A stretch of 64,000 bases of DNA from Vampirovibrio sp. (GTDB taxonomy: Bacteria > Cyanobacteriota > Vampirovibrionia > Vampirovibrionales > Vampirovibrionaceae), in the NCBI RefSeq assembly GCF_041737375.1, contig NZ_JBGSRV010000003.1:76522-140521 (forward strand), given 5' to 3'. The translations under genes and the position numbers were made by a program. This document shows, one piece after another, positions 5,320 to 20,093 of the stretch; position 1 is the stretch's first letter; the number at the start of each line of letters is the position of its first letter. The notes under the pieces were generated by a model, which saw nothing but the letters and a program-made list of their open reading frames with translations, made no database searches and was not told the origin of the DNA.

Positions 5320-8300
5320 ATGTTCGACCTAATCCGCAAGATGCTGCCCGATCCCAACGAGCGTAAAATCAAAGTCCGTGAGCCTATCGTGGATCACATC
5401 AACGACCTGGAAGCGGAAATGCAGGCGCTTTCTGATGAAGAGCTAAGAGGCAAGACCGCCTATTTTCAGCAAATGCTGGCCGGGCGGGAGCGGGGCGATA
5501 CCGAAAAACGGGATCGCCAGCTGGAAAAAGAAATGCTGGATCTGATTTTGCCGGAAGCGTTCGCCACGGTACGGGAAGCCAGCCGCCGGGTTCTGGGCAT
5601 GCGCCACTTTGACGTGCAGCTATTGGGCGGCATGGTTTTACACGATGGCGGCATTGCGGAAATGAGAACCGGAGAGGGAAAAACCCTGGTAGCCACTTTG
5701 CCCGCCTACCTGAACGCTTTAAGCGGCAAAGGTGTCCATGTGATTACCGTCAACGATTACCTGGCCCGCCGGGATGCCGAGTGGATGGGCAAGGTTTACA
5801 ATTTTCTGGGGCTGAGCACCGGAATGGTCCTGTCCCAACAGCGCAGCTTTAACGCGTTTGCCGATAAAAAAGACGCCTACGACGCTGATATTACCTACGG
5901 CACCAACAACGAATTCGGGTTTGACTATCTGCGAGATAACATGGCGGGTTCCAAAAGCCAGTTGGTACAGCGTCCCTTCAATTTTGCCATTATTGATGAA
6001 GTGGATAGCATTTTGATTGACGAGGCCCGTACCCCGCTCATTATTAGCGGGCGGCTCGAGCAATCGGCGGACATGTACCGCACCATGGCTCGCATTGCCC
6101 CCTTGTTGCAGCCAGAACGTGACTACACCGTGGATGAAAAGGGCAGAAACGTTGTTTTAACTGAGGACGGTATCGATCGCGCCCAGGAAGTTCTGGGCAT
6201 TGAAGACCTGTTTGATATTCAGCACAACATGGCCCACCACATGCTTCAGGCGCTGAAGGCCAAGGAACTGTTCCGTGTGGACGTGGATTATGTGGTTAAA
6301 AACAACGAAGTGATCATTGTAGATGAGTTCACCGGGCGCTTAATGGATGGTCGGCGGTGGAGCGATGGTTTGCATCAGGCGGTGGAAGCCAAGGAAGGGG
6401 TGCAAATTCAGGATGAAACCCAAACCTTGGCCAGTATTACCTTTCAAAACCTGTTCCGGCTCTACCCCAAGTTATCGGGCATGACGGGCACCGCGCAGAC
6501 CGAGGAAGCCGAGTTCGGCAAGATTTACAGCCTCAGCGTCACCACCATTCCCACCAACCGGCAAGACAGCCGAAACAATTTGCCGGACACCATTTATAAA
6601 AACGAACGCATCAAAATGTATAAAGTGGTGGAAGAAATTGTGGAATACCACCAGATGAACCGCCCGGTACTGGTGGGAACCGTTTCCATTGAGAAGTCCG
6701 AAGAAATTTCACACCTGCTTTCCAAGCCCGTGGAAATGGCCCAGCATTTGCGGGAAAAAGCGGCCCGCTTGCTGAATAGTCTGGATCAAACCAAGGATGC
6801 CGCGCTTTACAATCAGTTGGTGGGAAAACTCCGTAACCCGGAAGCCGCCAACCCGGAAGACTTTACCCAAATCGCCAAGGGCTTGCCTGAAGATATGGCC
6901 CTCTTTCTGGAAGGACTGGCCAAAACCCTGAAGACTGTTCAGGCCATTCAGGCAGGGCTTCCGCACCAGGTACTCAACGCCAAGCACCACGAGCATGAGG
7001 CCATGATTGTGGCTCAGGCGGGGCGCAAAGGGGCCATTACCATTGCCACCAACATGGCGGGCCGGGGTACCGATATTTTGCTGGGCGGCAACGCCGAACT
7101 CATGGCCAAAAGTGAATATGAGCTGATGGGCATGGACTGGCGCACGGTCGATCCCCAAGAGCTGGAAGCGGCCATTACCCGCAAAAAATTGCTGACTGAT
7201 TCGGAAAAAGAAGAAGTTCTGGCCGGGGGTGGCTTGCACATTATTGGTACCGAACGCCACGAATCACGCCGGATTGACAACCAATTGCGGGGTCGAGCGG
7301 CTCGACAAGGCGATCCCGGCTCTACGCACTTCTTTCTGTCTTTGGAAGATGGTTTGATGCGTAAATTCGGCGGCGAGCGCATTTCAGGCATGATGGACTT
7401 GCTGGGGGTGGATGAAACCATGCCCATTTCCGCCAAAATGGTCAGCAGGGCCATTGAGGGCGCTCAGCGCAAGGTAGAAGCTTACTACTTTGACATTCGT
7501 AAAAATATTTTGCAGTACGATGACGTGTTGACCGAGCAACGCAAGCTGATTTACGAGCAACGCAAAAAAGTGCTGAACGGGGAAAATTTACGGGATTCCA
7601 TTCGCCATATGGTGGAACAGGATATGGAACGCATTATAAGCACCCACTTAATTCCCAACAGCACCCCGGAAGACTGGGCGGATGAAGTGCTGGATGAAAT
7701 GCTGGCCACCATCCATGGCATTTGCCCCCAACTGGGGCCGGTGGTTACGAAGGCCAGTCTGGCTGGAAAAAATCAGGCCCAGCTGCTGGAATTTGTTCGC
7801 ACCGAAGGTTTAAAAGTTTATGAGACGCTGGAAAGCGAATTGACTCGAGTTTCAAGCGAGCTGGAAGCCTCTCATGGGGTCAATCTGGTGGGGCTGGATG
7901 AGGATGATGAAACCATCCAAAGCGAGCTGGCCCAATTATCACCCGAAAAAGCAGCCGAAATTAAGCACCCCCTGCGCCGAATTGAGCGAGACATCCTGCT
8001 ATCAGTGATTGATAACCGCTGGATTGATTATCTGCACAATCTGGATGGCCTGCGGGAAGGCATTGGCTTGCGGGCTTACGGCCAGAAAGATCCGCTGATT
8101 GAATACAAGCGGGAAGCTTTTGAAATGTTTCAGAACCTGACCTACGAAATTCAACGGGATACGGTCATGATTCTGTTCAACACCCGCATTGAAATTCAGA
8201 TGCAGCGCCAACTGGAAGAGCCTGCCTTGACGGTGGAAGCAGAAATGCACCATACCCCCCTGACCGAAGCGCTGGAGCATATTCAGGAAAGCGGGGAAGA

Positions 8301-9541: not shown

Positions 9542-10205
9542 ATTTACGAATCCAGCTACTCACCAAGCTAGATGTAACATCGTGTTTTTTGGCCAATTTT
9601 CCGGGCTTGGTTTCGCCTTGCTGATAATCCTCTAATACATACTTGCGTTTCACAGCAAATTCCTTGCGGCGTTCCGAAAGGCTCCCTGATTTTTTCTTTG
9701 TGCCAGTTCTGACCCTTTCAGAGGAGGCTTCCGACAAGATGGAAGGTTCGCTTTCGAGTTCGGTAAGAGATTGAACCTCCTTTCTCGCTTTTAGCTGCCG
9801 GGATAATGGCGCATTGAAGTCTGTCAACGGCTCAATCTCGAAAATCGCAAAAGGATTCCACGACGGTTTCTGATGCCCGCTGACCGGGGGGGAATCCAAA
9901 GCGGGTAATGTAAAGGGGGGCTGATTGGGGAATTTCACCAAAGTCGGCCCGCTCAAATCTGGCAAACCCTTCAAAAACTGGCGGTCTTGCGGCGAGAAAA
10001 ACAACTTGTCCACTTCAGGGGATGAAGGCTGAGAATCGTAGAAATCCGATGCAACAGACTTTAGAAAAGAATCGTTCGATGCGGTGCGAGGCGGGGGAGA
10101 TGTTTCATGCGAGGTGACCAGCTGCTGCTTGCGTTTTGCTTCATCAGCGGCGGTATTTTTAAACCCAAGCGAGTGCCCAGTGGTAACCAGCGAATAGGGA
10201 TGCAT
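9522..10205 (-). CDS. Hypothetical Ser/Pro-rich protein with a C-terminal transposase-like HTH (IS3 OrfA / HTH_Tnp_1-like)
   Basis: Strong AAGGAG RBS before the internal ATG at 10205. The C-terminus 'RRKEFAVKRKYVLEDYQQGETKPGKLAKKHDVTSSLVSSWIRKF' resembles transposase N-terminal HTHs. Its 3' end overlaps the convergent gene by 20 bp. Confidence 0.45.
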   Translation of the reverse strand: MHPYSLVTTGHSLGFKNTAADEAKRKQQLVTSHETSPPPRTASNDSFLKSVASDFYDSQPSSPEVDKLFFSPQDRQFLKGLPDLSGPTLVKFPNQPPFTLPALDSPPVSGHQKPSWNPFAIFEIEPLTDFNAPLSRQLKARKEVQSLTELESEPSILSEASSERVRTGTKKKSGSLSERRKEFAVKRKYVLEDYQQGETKPGKLAKKHDVTSSLVSSWIRKFKHSEK

Positions 10206-10365
10206 CGACCATTCTCCTTTACAGCAAATACACGGGCTCGTGAGCCAAAACGGAATCATGCCATGGAAACCCGGATTATGAAATCCAGATTATTTTAGCG
10301 ATGATTCAAACTTTTTACTATAACAATAGTAATATTGTCAAATCCATGACCAACGCAAAACCGCA

Positions 10366-11694
10366 TCAATCCCAATGGGCGGTGGTTAACTGAACCCGGC
10401 GCACAATCTCAGCCTCCGGCACGGTGAGTAACTGGCCTTGCTCAAACACCTTTTGGCCCGCCACATACACCGCCTGAATGGCTGAGGGCTGGCTGGCGTA
10501 AACCAGATTGTTCATGGCGTTCTGGCGGGGCTGCATGGAAAGATCGTTGAGGTTTACCACCGTAAAATCGGCGGCAAAACCGGCCTTAAGCTGACCGATG
10601 GGCAAGCCCAGATTTTGCCCCCCGTGACGGGTGCCCATGGCAAACATATCCGCCGCCTTGGTCACTGTGGAATCCAGGAATTTGACCTTTTGCAGCAAGC
10701 TGGTCATTCGCATTTCCTCAATAATAGAGGCCCGGTTATTGCTGCACCCCCCATCCGTTCCCAAAGAAATACACACCCCGGCGGCCTGCATTTCCCGAAT
10801 GCGGGTAATGCCATCACCCAAAAACAGGTTGCTGGAAGGGTTGTAAGAAAGCCCGGTACCACGCTGAGCCATTAATTCAATTTCTTGATCATCCATCCAT
10901 ACGCAATGGATGCCCACCAGACGCTGGTTCAGCACCCCTAAACTCTCCAGAAAAGCCACCGGGGGTTTGCCGTGTTTCTCCTCAATCAGGGTGCGCTCGT
11001 ACTGGCCTTCGGCAATGTGCATATGGAATGGGGTATCCAACGATTCCGCCAACGCCGCCCCGGCCAGAATCATCTCCACGCTGGCCCCGTGCAAGCTATG
11101 CGGGGCGGGCAGCACATGCACCATGGGGTGCTGCTTGAATTCGGCATGCAACTGGCGGGTATTTTCCACCGCCTGCGGCACGGATTCCCGAAAGCGATCG
11201 GGCGCGCCGTCCCAGTCGTACATGGTACGGGCCATGACGATGCGAATGCCCACATCCAGCGCGGCCTGAATCACCGCACGGGCGTTATCGTTGGCCTGAT
11301 CGTTGATATAAAAGAAATCGCAAACCGTGGTAATCCCGGCTTTCAGCATTTCCCCAAAGGCAAACAGGGCGCCGGTGTAAATATCTTCTCTGCTCAGGGT
11401 TTTGGCGTACTTGTACAGGGCCTGATCCCGCCAGGTGAAAAAATCCTCGTCATCGCAAAAGCCTTTTAGCAAGGATTGAAACGAGTGATTGTGCGAGTTG
11501 ACCAAACCGGGAATGATCAAACCATTGGCAAAGTGAATGACCTCTGCCGGTTGGGCGCTAGCCCCGTCAGCCAGAGCATTAGTCAGGGTTTTCAGGGGGC
11601 CTGCCCCCAGAATTTGATCGTCTTCTACCCATAACCCCCAGCCCGATTGGGGTTGTCCGTCCCCGTGAATCAAATCGGCGGTGTAAATGGGCAT
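10366..11694 (-). CDS. Amidohydrolase-superfamily deaminase/chlorohydrolase-like protein (SsnA/HutF/guanine-deaminase family)
   Basis: Metal-ligand motifs HNHSFQ, HMHIAEG and HCVWMDD, with TIM-barrel amidohydrolase organisation. GAGGAG RBS before the ATG at 11694. Confidence 0.75.
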   Translation of the reverse strand: MPIYTADLIHGDGQPQSGWGLWVEDDQILGAGPLKTLTNALADGASAQPAEVIHFANGLIIPGLVNSHNHSFQSLLKGFCDDEDFFTWRDQALYKYAKTLSREDIYTGALFAFGEMLKAGITTVCDFFYINDQANDNARAVIQAALDVGIRIVMARTMYDWDGAPDRFRESVPQAVENTRQLHAEFKQHPMVHVLPAPHSLHGASVEMILAGAALAESLDTPFHMHIAEGQYERTLIEEKHGKPPVAFLESLGVLNQRLVGIHCVWMDDQEIELMAQRGTGLSYNPSSNLFLGDGITRIREMQAAGVCISLGTDGGCSNNRASIIEEMRMTSLLQKVKFLDSTVTKAADMFAMGTRHGGQNLGLPIGQLKAGFAADFTVVNLNDLSMQPRQNAMNNLVYASQPSAIQAVYVAGQKVFEQGQLLTVPEAEIVRRVQLTTAHWD

Positions 11695-14680: not shown

Positions 14681-15121
14681 ATGAAAAAAAATAATGAGCC
14701 TCATGAGGTGGCCCGATATTTTTATCAAACTCTGGCCCAAAGTCAGGTGCAAGTTTGCTGGGGGCTTTTTTCGGAGCTGTCCCAAAAAGAGTTTATCAGC
14801 TGGACTCTGAAGGACATTTATGAGCAAAACCCCAAGGCCGCTCAAGCCGCCAAGCTAGGCCCCGCTGAGATCAAGCTGATGTTTGAAACCAACAATCTGG
14901 ATTTGGTAATGCGTTTTTGGCGGAAATTTGTGCGGCAAAGTCAGGCCGCTCAGTTTGCCCGCTTTGGCTATTACAAAACCCTGGAAGTTACCGGCAAAAT
15001 AGCCACCATAGAAGCACAACTGGTTTTCGACAACGGTCAGGAGCAGCGGGTGAACCTCACCATGGTACAAGAACGAGGCGGATGGCGCCTGGGCTACCTG
15101 GAATCCAAAATGCCCTTTTAG
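14681..15121 (+). CDS. Hypothetical protein
   Basis: 146-aa ORF with an ATG start. No recognisable domain and a weak RBS. Confidence 0.35.
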   Translation: MKKNNEPHEVARYFYQTLAQSQVQVCWGLFSELSQKEFISWTLKDIYEQNPKAAQAAKLGPAEIKLMFETNNLDLVMRFWRKFVRQSQAAQFARFGYYKTLEVTGKIATIEAQLVFDNGQEQRVNLTMVQERGGWRLGYLESKMPF

Positions 15122-15291
15122 GCTTTGGGGTTAAAGCAGGCTACGGCTTCTGCGAGGATGAGGGTGGGCTTCTAGTTTTTCTGGTGGGTTTTAGCCACTT
15201 TTTCCTGAGGCCTTCTCAACTCCAACAAAAAAGCCTTCCGGTTCAAAACTCGGAAAGCCTTCTGGTGTTTGGGTTTTCCACTTGTAAAAAG

Positions 15292-15368
15292 TGGCGGGGT
15301 GGACGGGACTCGAACCCGCGACATCTTGCGTGACAGGCAAGTACTCTAACCAACTGAGCTACCACCCC
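15292..15368 (-). tRNA. tRNA-Asp (anticodon GTC)
   Basis: Minus-strand sequence GGGGTGGTAGCTCAGTTGGTTAGAGTACTTGCCTGTCACGCAAGATGTCGCGGGTTCGAGTCCCGTCCACCCCGCCA. It has a 7-bp acceptor stem, the GTC anticodon in a CTGTCAC loop, a TTCGAGT T-loop and an encoded CCA. Confidence 0.9.
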
Positions 15369-15824
15369 GTGAGGTACGGTGTTCCTTTGGGGGACAGGAA
15401 TTTTATAACATAGCCGATTGGGGGACACAAGCGAAAATATTGAGAAAGGAATGCAAATAAAAGTTAAAATTTTGAAACCCCCTCTAGCAAAGCGTTATCG
15501 AAAACATTGAAAAAACAAGGCAAAAAAAGGCCGCATGAAGCGGCAAACTAAAAGAGGGGGGATGTAAGCGTTTATTATAAATTTATTTTGGGCCCAAAAA
15601 AGTGCAATGCATTTTACAGAGAAAGCTCTGGTGGGAGAGAATGGCCTACACAATGGGTCTAACGGATAAAATTGTTTTTTAAATTTAACGTTTTTATAAT
15701 ATTTGAACTTTGGAACCCAAAATGAACAGAGCCGCAACACCCTTGCCCCGACCGGCTTAGGCACCCAACCTCCGCATTGTGTGCCTGCGGTTGCCCTTGA
15801 TTTGAAAGAATGGAGGGAGCCTCA

Positions 15825-17321
15825 CTAATAACCGGTATAAGCGTTTCCGGGGCGATAGGGGCGGGCTTTTTTAAGCGGCTTGCGAGGCAACCGGCATTTT
15901 TGCATCACCGCATAGCGCAGGCAATCCATCACATCCTCGTACGGATGCTCCTGTAAGGGGGATTCCGAGCCGGATGGCCCGTAGCGGTATCCGCCCTCAA
16001 AGGCCTCAATCAGCTTTTCACATCCAAAATCCACCTGCAAAGCCGGACGGGGGCCAATCCATTCCGACAGCTTAACCCGCAGTAATTCCAACCCATCCTT
16101 GATGGATGACCTGTCAAAGAACGGAAACACCCCCATGCTATTCAGGATATCGATACTGGTTTGCAAGCTCTTGTCGGAGCGCTGAGCCCCCGCCGGATCG
16201 CAAATATCTTCCACCGGGACACTTCCGTAATTCACCTCGGTCAAATGGGTGACCCGTCGGGCGAAATCGGTGAGCAGTTCCTGCTTGCCTACCACTTCTC
16301 GCAGCACCAACAGCCGATCTTCGCTGTCAAAGGCCAAAAACAGGCACGAGGGGCAATGAAACCCAAAATCCCAGCTTCGAATCAGTTTGTGGGGCTTAAA
16401 CGCGGTAAAATCCCCTTTGTTGGCCTCGTTAAAATTACGAAACACCCGATCCTTCAAAGACAAGTGGTAGTTAATATCCAGCTCTCGGGCCACTTCATCT
16501 TCGCTCAGCCGTTTTTGCTGGTTGGCGTACCAGCCTTCATTGCGCAAGGGATGTTCCCGCCAGTGGATGCGTAACACCCGCACCTGCCCGGAAAATCGCA
16601 AATCGGCAAACCGGTTGTTCTTGCCATACGGGGTGCCTACCACAATGCGGCTGGGGGTAGACTGTCCGGCAGAGGCGTAAGCGGCGTCCTGCATGGGCCA
16701 AAAAGGGAACTCATCAAACAGAATGGCCTTGTAGCGCCCCCCTCGCCCAAAGTTCTCGTTGCTGCTTTCCCCGGTAATGGTGTTGCCGTTGGCCGGATTG
16801 AGCAAGCGCAGCAGGTTATCATGCACGTTGTCCTGAAACCCGGCTGGACGCATCCAGTGCGGTAACCAGGCCAGGTTGTAACGCAGTTTTTCCATCAGGG
16901 TAGACAGATCGCCCTTGCGATCCACCGCCTCCTGCTTGCGGGAACCCAAATGAAAATTGGCCCCGTCCCGAAACAGCCAGAAGTATTGAAAGGCCAAAAG
17001 CACCAGCCAGCTCAGGCCCATATCCCGGCTTTTTTCAATCAGCAGGTCTTCCCCCTTCTCAATGGCGGACACCAAATCCAGCAAGGCCGCTTCCTGAAAC
17101 GGGTAGGGCACAAAGGGCTGATGCGGCTGATCCAGCCGGGGGTCAAAAGTCCAGCAGAAATGCCGAAACCAGAAGCGGATATCCCGTTTGCACCAATGCA
17201 TCAACAAAGCCTGTAACTCGGGGTTCTCCTGCGCCGCCTGATACAAGCTCAGGCGGCGGGTTAACCAAGGGCGAGACGGCAAATCAGCGGCAGTATTTAT
17301 AGGGCTATTTGTATCACTCAT
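15825..17321 (-). CDS. Phage terminase large subunit-like protein (ATPase + RNase H-like nuclease)
   Basis: Deviant Walker A region (EKSRDMGLSW), Walker B (ILFDEFPFW), and acidic nuclease-domain motifs (WDFGFH, DICDPAG, EDVMDC). Length and domain order match Terminase_6-type TerL. Confidence 0.7.
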   Translation of the reverse strand: MSDTNSPINTAADLPSRPWLTRRLSLYQAAQENPELQALLMHWCKRDIRFWFRHFCWTFDPRLDQPHQPFVPYPFQEAALLDLVSAIEKGEDLLIEKSRDMGLSWLVLLAFQYFWLFRDGANFHLGSRKQEAVDRKGDLSTLMEKLRYNLAWLPHWMRPAGFQDNVHDNLLRLLNPANGNTITGESSNENFGRGGRYKAILFDEFPFWPMQDAAYASAGQSTPSRIVVGTPYGKNNRFADLRFSGQVRVLRIHWREHPLRNEGWYANQQKRLSEDEVARELDINYHLSLKDRVFRNFNEANKGDFTAFKPHKLIRSWDFGFHCPSCLFLAFDSEDRLLVLREVVGKQELLTDFARRVTHLTEVNYGSVPVEDICDPAGAQRSDKSLQTSIDILNSMGVFPFFDRSSIKDGLELLRVKLSEWIGPRPALQVDFGCEKLIEAFEGGYRYGPSGSESPLQEHPYEDVMDCLRYAVMQKCRLPRKPLKKARPYRPGNAYTGY

Positions 17322-17330
17322 GCCGGGCCT

Positions 17331-18077
17331 TTATATCCCCCCCATTAAGGCCAGGGCGATTTGAGAGCTGGTTCGCAAGGTACTTTCACGGTTCTGTCGG
17401 TTTTGTTCGGCCTGAAGGGCGGCGTTTTGATTGCTGACCTGCATGGCCAGATTGGCCCGTTGCACCGCCAAATCCGTGGCCCGCTGGGTTTCGTTCTGCA
17501 AAATACTGCTGCCATTGCTTTGCAAGCCTCGGGCCTGATTGTTCAAATCGGCCAGATAATTTTGAAACAGGGAAAACCGCCGCACCCGGCTGTCTTCATC
17601 GGCCCGATAAAGCTCTTCTCCCAGCAAGCCGGACTGCTTGTAGGCTTCCGATAACTGCCCCAGGCGGTTGTTTTCCAATTGCCCCAAAAAATGGGTGCCA
17701 AAGGTGGCGTTATAGGCGCCCCCAAACCGCTTGGCCAAGTTGGTGCGGGCTTTGGAGAGCTGATCGTTGGCGCTGCTATTAATACCGGCGGCTTGCAAAT
17801 CAAAAAAATCCTGACTGCGCTGATTGATGGCCTGCTGACGAACCGGGTCCGGCTGGTTCAGTTCTTTGGCCAAATTCTGAAGCCCCTTCAGGCTTTCTTC
17901 CACCGTTAAGCGGGTGGTGGGGGTCAAAAAGCTCTCAAAGCGTTGATCACTGCCTTTGGTGGTGGTCACATACCGATCGCCGGTCGGACTGTTAAATTCC
18001 ACCTTGGTAATGGCGGGTGGGGCCACGATTTTAACCACTTCCCGTTTGGGGGCTTTCTGCTTGCGTCCTAAAGACAT
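17331..18077 (-). CDS. Hypothetical Q/N-rich coiled-coil protein (candidate terminase small subunit / phage protein)
   Basis: AAGGAG RBS. Its stop lies 9 nt from the TerL start, indicating tight coupling. I do not recognise a domain. Confidence 0.5.
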   Translation of the reverse strand: MSLGRKQKAPKREVVKIVAPPAITKVEFNSPTGDRYVTTTKGSDQRFESFLTPTTRLTVEESLKGLQNLAKELNQPDPVRQQAINQRSQDFFDLQAAGINSSANDQLSKARTNLAKRFGGAYNATFGTHFLGQLENNRLGQLSEAYKQSGLLGEELYRADEDSRVRRFSLFQNYLADLNNQARGLQSNGSSILQNETQRATDLAVQRANLAMQVSNQNAALQAEQNRQNRESTLRTSSQIALALMGGI

Positions 18078-18142
18078 TGGGATGCTCCTTAAAAACTTGA
18101 CTGAACAGAGGGTTGATAGAATTGGACAGAAGATTAATAAAA

Positions 18143-18769
18143 TTAGAGAGAAGATTGATGGAAAGCCTGCGGCCCGTCTGGCAAGGGCTGACGCTTTTGC
18201 ACCCCTCGCAGCAAACGGGGCAATAACCAGCCTTGGTAACGATTGGCGGATACACTGTAAATAGCCACGTCCCGCAAACAGCCACCCAGCTTGATATCGG
18301 CTTTAAACAGGGCTTCCCGCTGAAAACCCCACCGCAGGCAAAAGCCCTTGGCCCCGGCGTTATCCAGTTCAAACTCAGCTTTCAGCTTTAGCAAGGCCAA
18401 GGGGCCAAAGGCGGCCTGAAAAATAGGAAGCAACAGGCGTTCCACCGCCGATCGGGCCTCTTTGTTTTCACGAAAATGGGAATGGGTGGCCCCGTGCAAA
18501 AACGCATGACGACCGGGCTGAATATCAGAGAGGGCAATAATGGCCCAAACCTGATCCGTCTCATCGGCCAGCACCCAAAGCCAGGGCAGGCAAGCGGCGG
18601 TATTTTCCGATAAAAAGTGGATATCTTGCTGTAAGTTTCCACTTTGGCGATAATCATCCAGCAAAATGGGGTGATGCGTCTGGAGCAACGCCTCAATACC
18701 GGGCTGATAGACGGCCCATTCTTGCAGGCTGGAAACGTGGCAAACCCGAAGCATGCTTAAGGTTCCCAA
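18143..18769 (-). CDS. GNAT-family N-acetyltransferase-like protein
   Basis: RimJ/RimL-like fold features with a C-terminal 'GFxLRWGFQRE...AIYS' motif. The start is uncertain. Confidence 0.5.
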   Translation of the reverse strand: MGTLSMLRVCHVSSLQEWAVYQPGIEALLQTHHPILLDDYRQSGNLQQDIHFLSENTAACLPWLWVLADETDQVWAIIALSDIQPGRHAFLHGATHSHFRENKEARSAVERLLLPIFQAAFGPLALLKLKAEFELDNAGAKGFCLRWGFQREALFKADIKLGGCLRDVAIYSVSANRYQGWLLPRLLRGVQKRQPLPDGPQAFHQSSL

Positions 18770-19068
18770 TCCTTGATGTAAGTACGCACCCGGTTCAGCA
18801 GCTCTTGCTCGCTGAGCTGCTCCAGCTCGGCAGGCTCCAGAGGTGTTTCTGCCTTTTTGCCTTTTTTCACCACAGCGGTATTGGCATCTTCAGCGGGGGT
18901 GCGTTTCAGTATTAAATCCACCGCCCAGATTTTATCTTTCATGCTTTCAGAATCCAGGGCCTCGTCAATAACCCCCAGCACCCGGTGATAGCGGTCCGAG
19001 AGGGCGTCCAGCAAATTCTTCAGTTTGGGCAGCAGTCCGCCGGTGGATGGTATTTTTTTGGGTTTCAT
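18757..19068 (-). CDS. Hypothetical small protein
   Basis: 103-aa ORF with an AGGA RBS. It overlaps the following ORF in another frame. Weak. Confidence 0.3.
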   Translation of the reverse strand: MKPKKIPSTGGLLPKLKNLLDALSDRYHRVLGVIDEALDSESMKDKIWAVDLILKRTPAEDANTAVVKKGKKAETPLEPAELEQLSEQELLNRVRTYIKDWEP

Positions 19069-19393
19069 ATACAGTATCCTGTCGTTGGGCTTGGGCAATT
19101 CGGTGCAGGTAATCGAGGGGCGGATCGGTGGCCCGGCTGATGCGTGCGGTGTATTCACCCACCATCATTCTGGCGGAACCTACGCCAACCGCTTGCTGTG
19201 GCTTACGACCGCCTTGCCAGTCGGCCAAAGTGGCGGGTTGCAGGGGGCCTTGCAAACTGGTTTTCTGCAACAGGCATTTAAATTTGCATCGTTTGCAGCG
19301 TTTTTTATACAGCAAGGCATTTCCGGCAGCGTGTATCCGCACTTCTATCGTTTTTAAAAACAGGCTTTTGCAGTGGTCGCATTGATATGGCAT
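18965..19393 (-). CDS. Hypothetical C4 zinc-finger protein
   Basis: N-terminal YQCDHCK...CKRCKFKC motif. The rest is low complexity, so only the N-terminal part may be real. Confidence 0.3.
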   Translation of the reverse strand: MPYQCDHCKSLFLKTIEVRIHAAGNALLYKKRCKRCKFKCLLQKTSLQGPLQPATLADWQGGRKPQQAVGVGSARMMVGEYTARISRATDPPLDYLHRIAQAQRQDTVYETQKNTIHRRTAAQTEEFAGRPLGPLSPGAGGY

Positions 19394-19486
19394 AACGCCC
19401 CTCACGTTCTAGACAGTCAGCAGCGCTGTCGCGTGAATTTAGTATGAAGGTGGGGTTTGGATTTTCCCAGCGAAGCAGATTTATGA

Positions 19487-19820
19487 TTTCAAGGGGGCCA
19501 GCCCCCTTGGAATCCCCCGCTGGGGACGGGTTGTGTCCCCAGACCCCTCAAATATGGGGGAAGGGTGAATCGAAGAACGTGCCTTTCAAGGGGGCTAGCC
19601 CCCTTGGGTGTCATTGGCTGGGGGTGGGTTTTGTTTTCAGGCCTCTCAAATACTGCGGGGATACCGTTTCCTAGAATGCGCTTTTCAAGGGGCTTGCCCC
19701 TTGAATGAATGCCCATAAGCCCCCTATCTAAAAAACACCTCTCTCCCTCCTACCTGAGGGGTCTGGGGACACAGTCCGTCCCCAGCGGGGGATCCCAAGG
19801 GGGCTGGCCCCCTTGAAAAT
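19487..19820. repeat. Composite palindrome-rich repeat element (MITE-like) with ~66-bp terminal inverted repeats
   Basis: The left arm 19487-19552 and the reverse complement of the right arm 19753-19819 are ~62/66 identical. Four copies of the 20-bp palindrome caagggggc(c/t)(a/t)gcccccttg sit at ~98-bp spacing. Confidence 0.7.
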
Positions 19821-20093
19821 CCACTATTTATAAAATAGCAACTACAAAACCAGCTCCAAAAACCCCAGCAAACCCTTTGGGGCGAACTTACACTAAAGCG
19901 TTTTTGTCAAACAAACACCAAGAAAAGATTACGAAATGTAAACTCACCCCAACCGCCTGCCCATCAACACCTTGGCAAAAGCTCTTATTTTTGTTTTTAT
20001 TTTTATTTCTCTCAATGAGGATTCTCAGCTAGAATAATTTCATCGATTGGAAGTGACCACCACTAACGTTTACAGAGGGATGGAACCAGCGCC

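Follow-up and report, generated by a model that had tools for sequence, protein, structure and literature searches.

Domesticated defective prophages, a concept reportedly introduced by Bobay, Touchon, and Rocha in 2014, are phage genes that have been kept in the bacterial chromosome, are inherited vertically, and are maintained by purifying selection, the rest of the prophage having been lost. Gene transfer agents (GTAs) of the RcGTA type retain a phage-derived, intact terminase large subunit (TerL) whose evolution follows that of the host, and they cannot propagate themselves. Phage satellites, including the Staphylococcus aureus pathogenicity islands and other phage-inducible chromosomal islands (SaPI/PICI), cf-PICI, and P4, are small, adjoin tRNA genes, carry packaging-related genes, and depend on the capsids of helper phages. 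Here, we compare these systems with a cassette of five genes from Vampirovibrio sp., which is located at 15.8 to 19.4 kb of a 64-kb stretch of contig NZ_JBGSRV010000003.1 (64,000 nucleotides; the whole of this stretch is referred to as the window). Upstream of a tRNA-Asp gene, and all on the minus strand, the cassette comprises, in this order, the genes for TerL, orf248, orf208, the small open reading frame (ORF) orf133, and a Zn-ribbon protein (Table 1). The cassette is likely, perhaps very likely, an exapted fragment of the packaging region of a tailed phage that was captured once, has been inherited vertically, and is kept by selection in the Vampirovibrionales. TerL-bearing loci that were compared with the window carry L numbers, among which L002 and L003 denote Vampirovibrio chlorellavorus-like genomes.

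The original prediction, which was made from the DNA letters of the window, had recognized a terminase large subunit with Walker A, Walker B, and acidic nuclease motifs, and this gene proved to be genuine, intact, and of phage origin. The window TerL matched the PHROG family phrog_2, "terminase large subunit" (E value, 9.7e-22), a profile of a 30-sequence TerL family matched T4 gp17 (3ezk; 3.4e-6), and tblastn against annotated phage TerLs gave 41% identity (5e-49). In the proposed check with terminase hidden Markov models (HMMs), the window protein itself stayed below the Pfam thresholds and gave no match there; PF03237 (Terminase_6) is present in many of its orthologues. Like T4 gp17 and lambda gpA, the protein has the two-domain arrangement of ATPase and nuclease, a DE Walker B (here, DEF), a TPxG C-motif, and acidic nuclease residues (D318, D375, D463, and D466). 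Its Walker A (KSRDMG, within KSRDMGLS) possesses the upstream lysine, as does that of lambda gpA (KSARVGYS). In an alignment of 30 TerLs, K97, R99, D203, E204, T230, G233, D318, and D375 were invariant and S98, P231, D463, and D466 were nearly so; the latter four were invariant in a 17-sequence alignment that included the TerL of phage L022. Judged from its sequence, the protein is a T4-type terminase large subunit, in which the motifs for ATPase and nuclease activity are intact. In contrast to T4 gp17 and lambda gpA, it has no cognate small subunit, portal, or capsid beside it and falls short of the Pfam thresholds. The extreme C terminus, N-x-Y-T-G-Y, is common to the cassette TerL and the L022 TerL. 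It is the C-terminal end of TerL that contacts the portal in lambda, T3, and T7, and the tail shared with L022 suggests that contact with a portal has been retained.

In a neighbor-joining tree, all chromosomal TerLs formed a single clade, to which the TerLs of L022, L041, and L042 were sister; identity between cassette and sister-phage TerLs was 47 to 54%. L022, L041, and L042 are complete viruses or prophages, with phage genomes of ~40 to 45 kb. Beside TerL, they encode hallmark portal (phrog_1216 and phrog_332) and tail fiber (phrog_24210) proteins, and their head and packaging genes include a major head protein (phrog_267; 3.9e-46) and an Sf6-type terminase small subunit (TerS) (PF20901; 1.1e-41). 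The phage genes are ordered Zn, ..., TerS, GNAT, C50, C48, a gene for a protein of ~1,100 amino acids, C18, a small ORF, TerL, portal, scaffold, and capsid. Three large virion proteins are encoded between C50 and TerL. The order of the cassette is that of the phages minus its middle and end, with orf133 where TerS was. Four of the five cassette genes are of phage ancestry, namely TerL and three partners (Zn ribbon, GNAT, and orf248) whose phage homologues stand in the same order. Unlike the phages, the cassette possesses neither their Sf6-type TerS nor portal, scaffold, capsid, or tail genes. When the sister-phage proteins were compared with the entire window by tblastn, only TerL gave a significant match, and a DNA-level search of GenBank phages matched nothing but the tRNA. 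Phages and cassettes occur together: the L042 prophage lies on the same 2.2-Mb contig as the cassette locus L016, and L022 was binned in the same metagenome-assembled genome (MAG) as L035. In L041 and L042, TerL is encoded by two adjacent ORFs (9983-10690 and 10691-11524 in L041; 9995-10717 and 10714-11517 in L042). The split falls exactly at the boundary between the ATPase and nuclease domains in two independent phages, which suggests a two-piece terminase or a programmed frameshift and not a pseudogene.

Searches for the window TerL yielded 523 homologues, on contigs of up to 2.55 Mb, and the named ones are from Melainabacteria or Vampirovibrionales MAGs. Among GTDB species genomes (one per species), 80 TerL loci were found, the closest relative being that of V. 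chlorellavorus (80% amino acid identity); most of the relatives are MAGs. The co-directional cassette of Zn ribbon, orf133, GNAT, orf248, and TerL was detected in ~20 Vampirovibrionales species by tblastn, ORF clustering, and HMMs, the latter finding orf133 in 17 loci, the Zn-ribbon and GNAT genes in 15 each, and orf248 in 14. Dozens of species retain the ORFs at full length, at TerL identities down to ~45%. Some loci have a reduced set of partners, with orf248 missing from L005, L006, L008, L009, L020, and L035 and GNAT missing also from L005 and L006. A second clade of 13 loci, including the complete 2.04-Mb genome CP050876, possesses a longer, solitary TerL without any of the partners. These clade 2 chromosomal TerLs (L025 to L040; for example, L033 9800-11608 and L040 385-2358) carry a conserved N-terminal extension of ~60 to 100 amino acids, as well as, in the nuclease domain, a low-complexity insertion rich in Pro, Glu, and Gly that varies among them and reaches ~100 amino acids. 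orf133 was tested as the source of the N-terminal extension, with a negative result.

The flanks of the cassette contain housekeeping genes, with ribE, ribBA, and ribH on one side and the gene for ribosomal protein L25 on the other. The synteny comparison proposed in the original prediction as a test for an insertion showed that the upstream flank is collinear gene for gene with that of V. chlorellavorus and that the cassette occupies the same position there. A different common upstream neighborhood (clusters C16-C8-C15-C14) is found in L011, L014, L020, and, in part, L009. The tetranucleotide composition of the cassette is host-like (z scores, 0.3 to 1.0), and its GC content at third codon positions equals that of its surroundings. 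Selection was measured between L002 and L003, the least saturated pair for the ratio of nonsynonymous to synonymous substitution rates (dN/dS). This ratio was 0.07 for TerL, 0.08 for orf248, 0.09 for orf133, and 0.28 for GNAT, and TerL values overall ranged from 0.07 to 0.13. The synonymous rate (dS) in the cassette was 0.57 to 0.69, compared with 0.71 to 0.74 in the flanking host genes. The cassette is under purifying selection, and its dS matches that of its flanks. Collectively, these properties most closely resemble those of domesticated prophages, from which the cassette differs in spanning a whole bacterial order, in having the packaging enzyme as its core and not tail, lysis, or regulatory genes, and in forming a tidy five-gene operon with its own promoter-like block.

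Of the partner proteins, orf248 had been proposed to be TerS-like on account of its position. The gap between its stop codon and the ATG of TerL is exactly 9 nucleotides, as predicted (AGGCCCGGC), and the described richness in Q and N corresponds to 18% of its residues. The TerS assignment did not survive: in the proposed search of TerS families, as in all of Pfam and PHROG, orf248 gave no match. Instead, alignment with hhalign identified it as a homologue of phage protein C50 (95%; 3.5e-8) over its N-terminal half, and the donor-type phages that encode C50 possess a separate Sf6-type TerS. An AlphaFold 2 (AF2) model with a predicted local distance difference test (pLDDT) score of 90.7 consists of a three-stranded sheet followed by helices at residues 53 to 74, 78 to 118, and 123 to 245, the longest being ~120 residues; this sheet and long-helix architecture, together with the C50 homology and the missing TerS match, rules out a TerS. 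Structural searches of BFVD and the PDB with the model returned only generic coiled-coil matches, none at an E value of ≤1e-3, and the sequence profile retrieved nothing meaningful from the PDB. The family is small, with 47 representatives among 1.84 billion proteins. Since C50 shows weak PHROG matches to "virion structural" and "DNA ejection" families, this homologue of orf248 is possibly an internal-virion or ejection protein.

The acetyltransferase predicted upstream of orf248 could be recognized as a GNAT fold at the family level only. Eight of 12 orf208 orthologues match Acetyltransf_3, from sub-threshold values to a best E value of 2.9e-6, with the window protein at 0.28. Comparison by hhalign with the phage GNAT protein C20, which itself matches the acetyltransferase family phrog_1249, gave 97.9% (3.3e-13). 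By eye, the acetyl-coenzyme A pyrophosphate-binding loop (Q/R-x-x-G-x-G/A) is not conserved in the orf208 alignment. The small ORF and the C4 zinc finger ORF that had been noted farther upstream are both real and overlap each other. orf133 is the most constant partner of TerL, is characterized by an invariant D(K/R)IWA...LKR motif, and occupies the position of TerS in the phages. When orf133 was tested as a diverged TerS, hhalign showed no homology to the Sf6-type TerS of the donor phages (probability, 0.3%). Outside the cassette, no relatives of orf133 were found in Pfam, the PDB, or IMG/VR, and a single-sequence AF2 model was poor (pLDDT, 59.6). The Zn-ribbon protein combines an NrdR-like N-terminal ribbon with a conserved C-terminal SEYTxRIS...YL motif. 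Five of 10 orthologues match PF22811 (Zn_ribbon_NrdR) at sub-threshold level (best E value, 1.2e-4). hhalign comparison with the homologue in prophage L042 (615-980) gave 93.6% (2e-7), and the conserved C-terminal motif is also present in the phage homologue. In the window, the Zn-ribbon ORF lacks the stop codon of its relatives and continues for 34 codons into orf133 in another frame, which results in a 104-nucleotide overlap (18965-19068).

Table 1. Positions in the window of the cassette genes and of the elements around them
Feature	Position	Strand	Basis
tRNA-Asp (GTC)	15292..15368	-	ARAGORN; Rfam (71.8 bits)
Candidate small RNA gene, ~45 nt	15515..15579	-	Conservation, covariance model, fold, terminator scan
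TerL, predicted N-terminal ATPase and C-terminal RNase-H-like nuclease, complete, 498 aa	15825..17321	-	PHROG, profiles, tblastn, alignments
orf248, coiled-coil protein	17331..18077	-	hhalign to phage C50; AF2 model
orf208, GNAT-fold protein (likely start, ATG 18754)	18143..18769	-	Pfam at family level; hhalign to C20
orf133 core, small helical protein, 103 aa	18757..19068	-	HMM in 17 loci; alignment
Zn-ribbon protein, CxxC...KKRCKRCKFK	18965..19393	-	Alignment; hhalign to L042 homologue
Promoter-like block: TCATAAATYTGCTTCGCTG, ~20-nt spacer, CATACTA	19440..19486	-	Alignment of the upstream regions of nine loci
GC-rich palindromic array: AAGGGGGCNNGCCCCCTT and CTGGGG..CCCCAG	19487..19818		Repeat analysis

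Several non-coding elements accompany the cassette. The tRNA-Asp gene and the AT-rich spacer of ~450 bp that had been described between it and TerL were both confirmed, the spacer measuring 456 bp at a GC content of 0.42, compared with 0.52 for the window. A tRNA-Asp gene also follows TerL at 340 to 440 bp in L002 to L006, L009, L020, and L082. The last of these, L082, is the 48.8-kb IMG/VR entry IMGVR_UViG_3300048597_000654; it carries the GNAT-orf248-TerL-tRNA-Asp block, with a TerL 90% identical to that of the window, and it also contains a prophage-like element with a serine recombinase.

The spacer contains a conserved element that looks like a ~45-nucleotide small RNA gene with a C/U-rich seed and an intrinsic-terminator hairpin. 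In the window, it consists of a TATAAT box (15579-15574), a single-stranded segment ACAUCCCCCCUCUUUUAGU (15565-15547), a GCCGC/GCGGC hairpin (15544-15530), and a U-run. The 13-nucleotide core of this segment, ACATCCCCCCTCT, is identical in 11 loci in which nearby synonymous sites are saturated; over the remaining positions of the 19-mer, 8 of these loci agree fully, and L008, L015, and L020 nearly so. Viewed from the TATAAT box, a C/U-rich box ACATCCCCCCTCTTTTAGT begins 7 to 8 bases downstream; its 13-nucleotide core, ACAUCCCCCCUCU, is invariant across loci and the remainder is nearly so. A covariance model of the candidate (R1) found exactly one copy per locus in the 657 kb searched, always after TerL (L002 11726-11777, L004 11715-11768, L009 11687-11741, L015 2373-2424, and L020 9295-9348, among others), and the core always lies ~200 nucleotides after TerL. 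The predicted fold has a free energy of -9.7 kcal/mol (z = -3.5), and a terminator scan also picked up the hairpin. The candidate belongs to no Rfam family, the tRNA-Asp being the sole match of the Rfam scan, and its stem shows no covariation. Within the window, the putative seed has no target besides the gene itself.

At the other end of the cassette, the conserved promoter-like block that precedes the Zn-ribbon gene is presumably the promoter of the operon. Just upstream of it, and adjoining it, is the complex inverted-repeat array of the original prediction, which was confirmed as a 75-nucleotide inverted repeat (91% complementary) around 182 nucleotides. Within it, the palindrome AAGGGGGCNNGCCCCCTT occurs in 3 copies, compared with 0.19 expected. 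At the same place, the palindromes form a tandem array of 7.5 units of 134 bp in L003 (6784-7787) and a single copy in L002 (7760-7830). The array occurs solely in the window and in the V. chlorellavorus lineage and is absent upstream of the Zn-ribbon gene in more distant loci. Its proposed role as a cos, pac, or att site is contradicted by this restriction to one lineage, by its variable copy number (1 to 7.5), and by its position against the promoter-like block; it behaves like a repetitive extragenic palindromic (REP)-type repeat or a regulatory or insulating array. In more distant loci (L004, ~7960-8010, and the corresponding regions of L005, L006, L035, and L020), the leader of the Zn-ribbon gene contains a conserved GC-rich hairpin with a T-run (GGCCTCG...CGAGGCC TTTT), which may act as an attenuator or leader RNA; this element is missing from the shorter leader in the window. 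Between orf193 and the array, at 19870-20060 (ccaatcgatgaaattattcta..., ttttcttggtgtttgtttgacaaaaac...; 7210-7400 in L002), is a further non-coding block that is well conserved and may be the promoter or leader of orf193 or another non-coding element.

The original prediction had interpreted the locus as a decayed prophage or as a PICI or satellite at the tRNA, retaining the packaging genes only. That a satellite integrated at tRNA-Asp is very unlikely follows from several observations, even though the cassette adjoins a tRNA, carries TerL without structural genes (the reported absence of integrase, portal, and capsid genes from 15.3 to 19.8 kb holds), and has related phages that could serve as helpers. 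Satellites possess an integrase, a replication module, and att sites and vary in presence among strains, and none of these traits was found when the cassette was tested for them: there is no integrase or recombinase ORF between 14.5 and 21.5 kb, no replication gene, and no att repeat. The proposed search for a direct repeat of the tRNA-Asp 3' end was negative, as this end occurs in a single copy in the window, apart from an 11-nucleotide seed inside the Zn-ribbon gene that is at chance level. Since TerL is followed by tRNA-Asp on the same strand, the cassette lies 5' of the tRNA, the wrong side for tRNA-targeted insertion, whereas real insertions lie 3'. In relatives, the 3' side is indeed a variable insertion site, occupied in L082 (3332-9541) by a large serine recombinase, a cI-like regulator, and phage-like ORFs and in V. 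chlorellavorus by ~5 kb of ankyrin-repeat genes (L002 11910-16749; ankyrin genes are also found in L003); in the window, it is empty (15121-15292). By contrast, the cassette block is not variable and is present in every related locus sampled, in the same position as in V. chlorellavorus, with host-like composition and with the dS of its flanks; a shared block of host-like composition was the outcome that the original prediction had named as its own refutation. Satellites usually carry TerS or a TerS-binding protein, whereas the cassette has a lone TerL. On the side of resemblance, P4 also has a zinc finger regulator. Neutral decay of a cryptic prophage that persists only by chance or through its linkage to the tRNA would account for the deletion of most phage genes, for the Zn-ribbon ORF of the window running into orf133 without its usual stop, and for the loss of orf248 and GNAT in some lineages. 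Such decay is extremely unlikely, given a cassette that is intact in ~20 species, dN/dS values of 0.07 to 0.28 with dS equal to that of flanking host genes, dozens of species with ORFs of full length even where identity falls to 45%, and catalytic residues that are invariant or nearly so.

Two further explanations accept long-term selection on the cassette. Known GTAs, such as RcGTA, have genes at several loci, and the cassette could be one part of a dispersed GTA-like or particle-forming system with its portal, capsid, and tail genes elsewhere in the chromosome. Such a system would be in keeping with an intact packaging enzyme that is inherited vertically under purifying selection, as in GTAs, and with the consideration that a terminase lacking a capsid has little use. 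However, GTA clusters hold portal, protease, capsid, and tail genes beside TerL, and none of these is beside the cassette TerL. Neither the 64 kb of the window nor the 10-kb flanks of the cassette in ~35 loci contained a structural gene, and the cassette has no TerS. The 57 members of the donor-type portal family are all on contigs of ≤91 kb, mostly 37 to 45 kb, so that the portals of the donor lineage were seen only on phage-sized contigs, in an incomplete search that missed the L042 prophage. We consider a dispersed system quite unlikely. The terminase might alternatively have been exapted for a role unrelated to phages, for example as a DNA translocase or nuclease in predatory attack on prey, DNA uptake or degradation, or chromosome maintenance. 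The presence of the gene throughout an order of obligate predators, the retention of TerL alone in the second clade, the housekeeping neighborhood, and the weak resemblance of orf248 to phage proteins that are ejected into a target cell would be in line with this. On the other hand, translocation of DNA by a TerL motor normally requires a portal ring, the C-terminal tail that the protein has in common with phage TerL suggests portal contact, and the cassette has no linked genes for secretion or predation. We know of no precedent for a phage-unrelated role of a terminase, and such a role appears unlikely.

Under the preferred reading of an exapted packaging fragment, one ancestor would have captured a stretch of a ~40- to 45-kb phage. 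TerS and the large virion proteins, along with all genes beyond TerL, would then have been lost, leaving the Zn-ribbon, orf133, GNAT, C50-like orf248, and TerL genes. With members seen on phage-sized contigs only, in the incomplete search described above, the donor-type portal was apparently not domesticated alongside TerL. The cassette would be transcribed from its own conserved promoter-like block and, in one subclade, be followed by the small-RNA-like gene and tRNA-Asp. TerL is predicted to be an active ATPase-nuclease that has lost its canonical small subunit, and the Zn-ribbon protein, orf133, or both may replace TerS as a factor that targets DNA or TerL. TerL may still dock on the procapsid portals of related phages that infect these bacteria, and the operon may act during infection, either sabotaging phage packaging as a defense or diverting capsids to host DNA. 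This proposal is drawn from the phage derivation of all recognizable genes, the preservation of the catalytic residues and C terminus of TerL, and the occurrence of sister phages in the same genomes; taken as a whole, the packaging interference or diversion mechanism is possible but doubtful.

A number of observations weigh against capture of a phage fragment for use against phages. None of the five cassette proteins matched PADLOC-DB at an E value of ≤0.1, and the flanks are housekeeping genes and not a defense island. orf133 has no detectable phage homologue. TerL lacks any partner in the second clade, which implies that the partners are dispensable for its role. The neighbor-joining tree that unites the chromosomal TerLs is distance based, without support values or comparison with a species tree. 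The search that placed no donor-type portal on large chromosomal contigs relied on a word index that would miss very divergent or unrelated portals, and structural genes may therefore lie elsewhere in the genomes; this search also failed to recover the L042 prophage, on a contig of 2.2 Mb, and is therefore incomplete. Finally, the hosts of the sister phages are only partly consistent, as L041 was binned with Pseudobdellovibrionaceae and L029 with Gammaproteobacteria.

A search of the literature on terminases in Vampirovibrio, Vampirovibrionales, or Melainabacteria, and on orphan, exapted, or vertically inherited terminases, returned nothing on this cassette. It is unusual in that the packaging enzyme is the very part kept as its core, that no capsid gene accompanies it, and that it is conserved across an order. 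A stand-alone TerL with Zn-ribbon, helical, GNAT-fold, and ejection-like coiled-coil proteins might, tentatively, constitute a new cellular system, acting either as a host "counter-terminase" that would sabotage or hijack packaging by the sister phages or as a DNA pump or nuclease of these obligate predators. To our knowledge, no such stand-alone terminase system has been described.

TerL counts as a viral hallmark and serves to identify viral contigs, and yet a complete TerL under selection belongs to the ordinary chromosomal genes of an entire bacterial order. Chromosomal TerLs may thus feed false viral calls; at least one such bacterial contig, L082, is filed in IMG/VR, although a prophage-like element is present there as well. 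The long retention of a packaging ATPase-nuclease without a capsid raises the question of what a terminase does alone. This question is tractable, given five small genes, natural variants that lack from one to four of the partners, and sister phages that can be identified. Possible outcomes include a new way of countering phages at the packaging step, a minimal device for transduction, and the reuse of viral machinery in predation.

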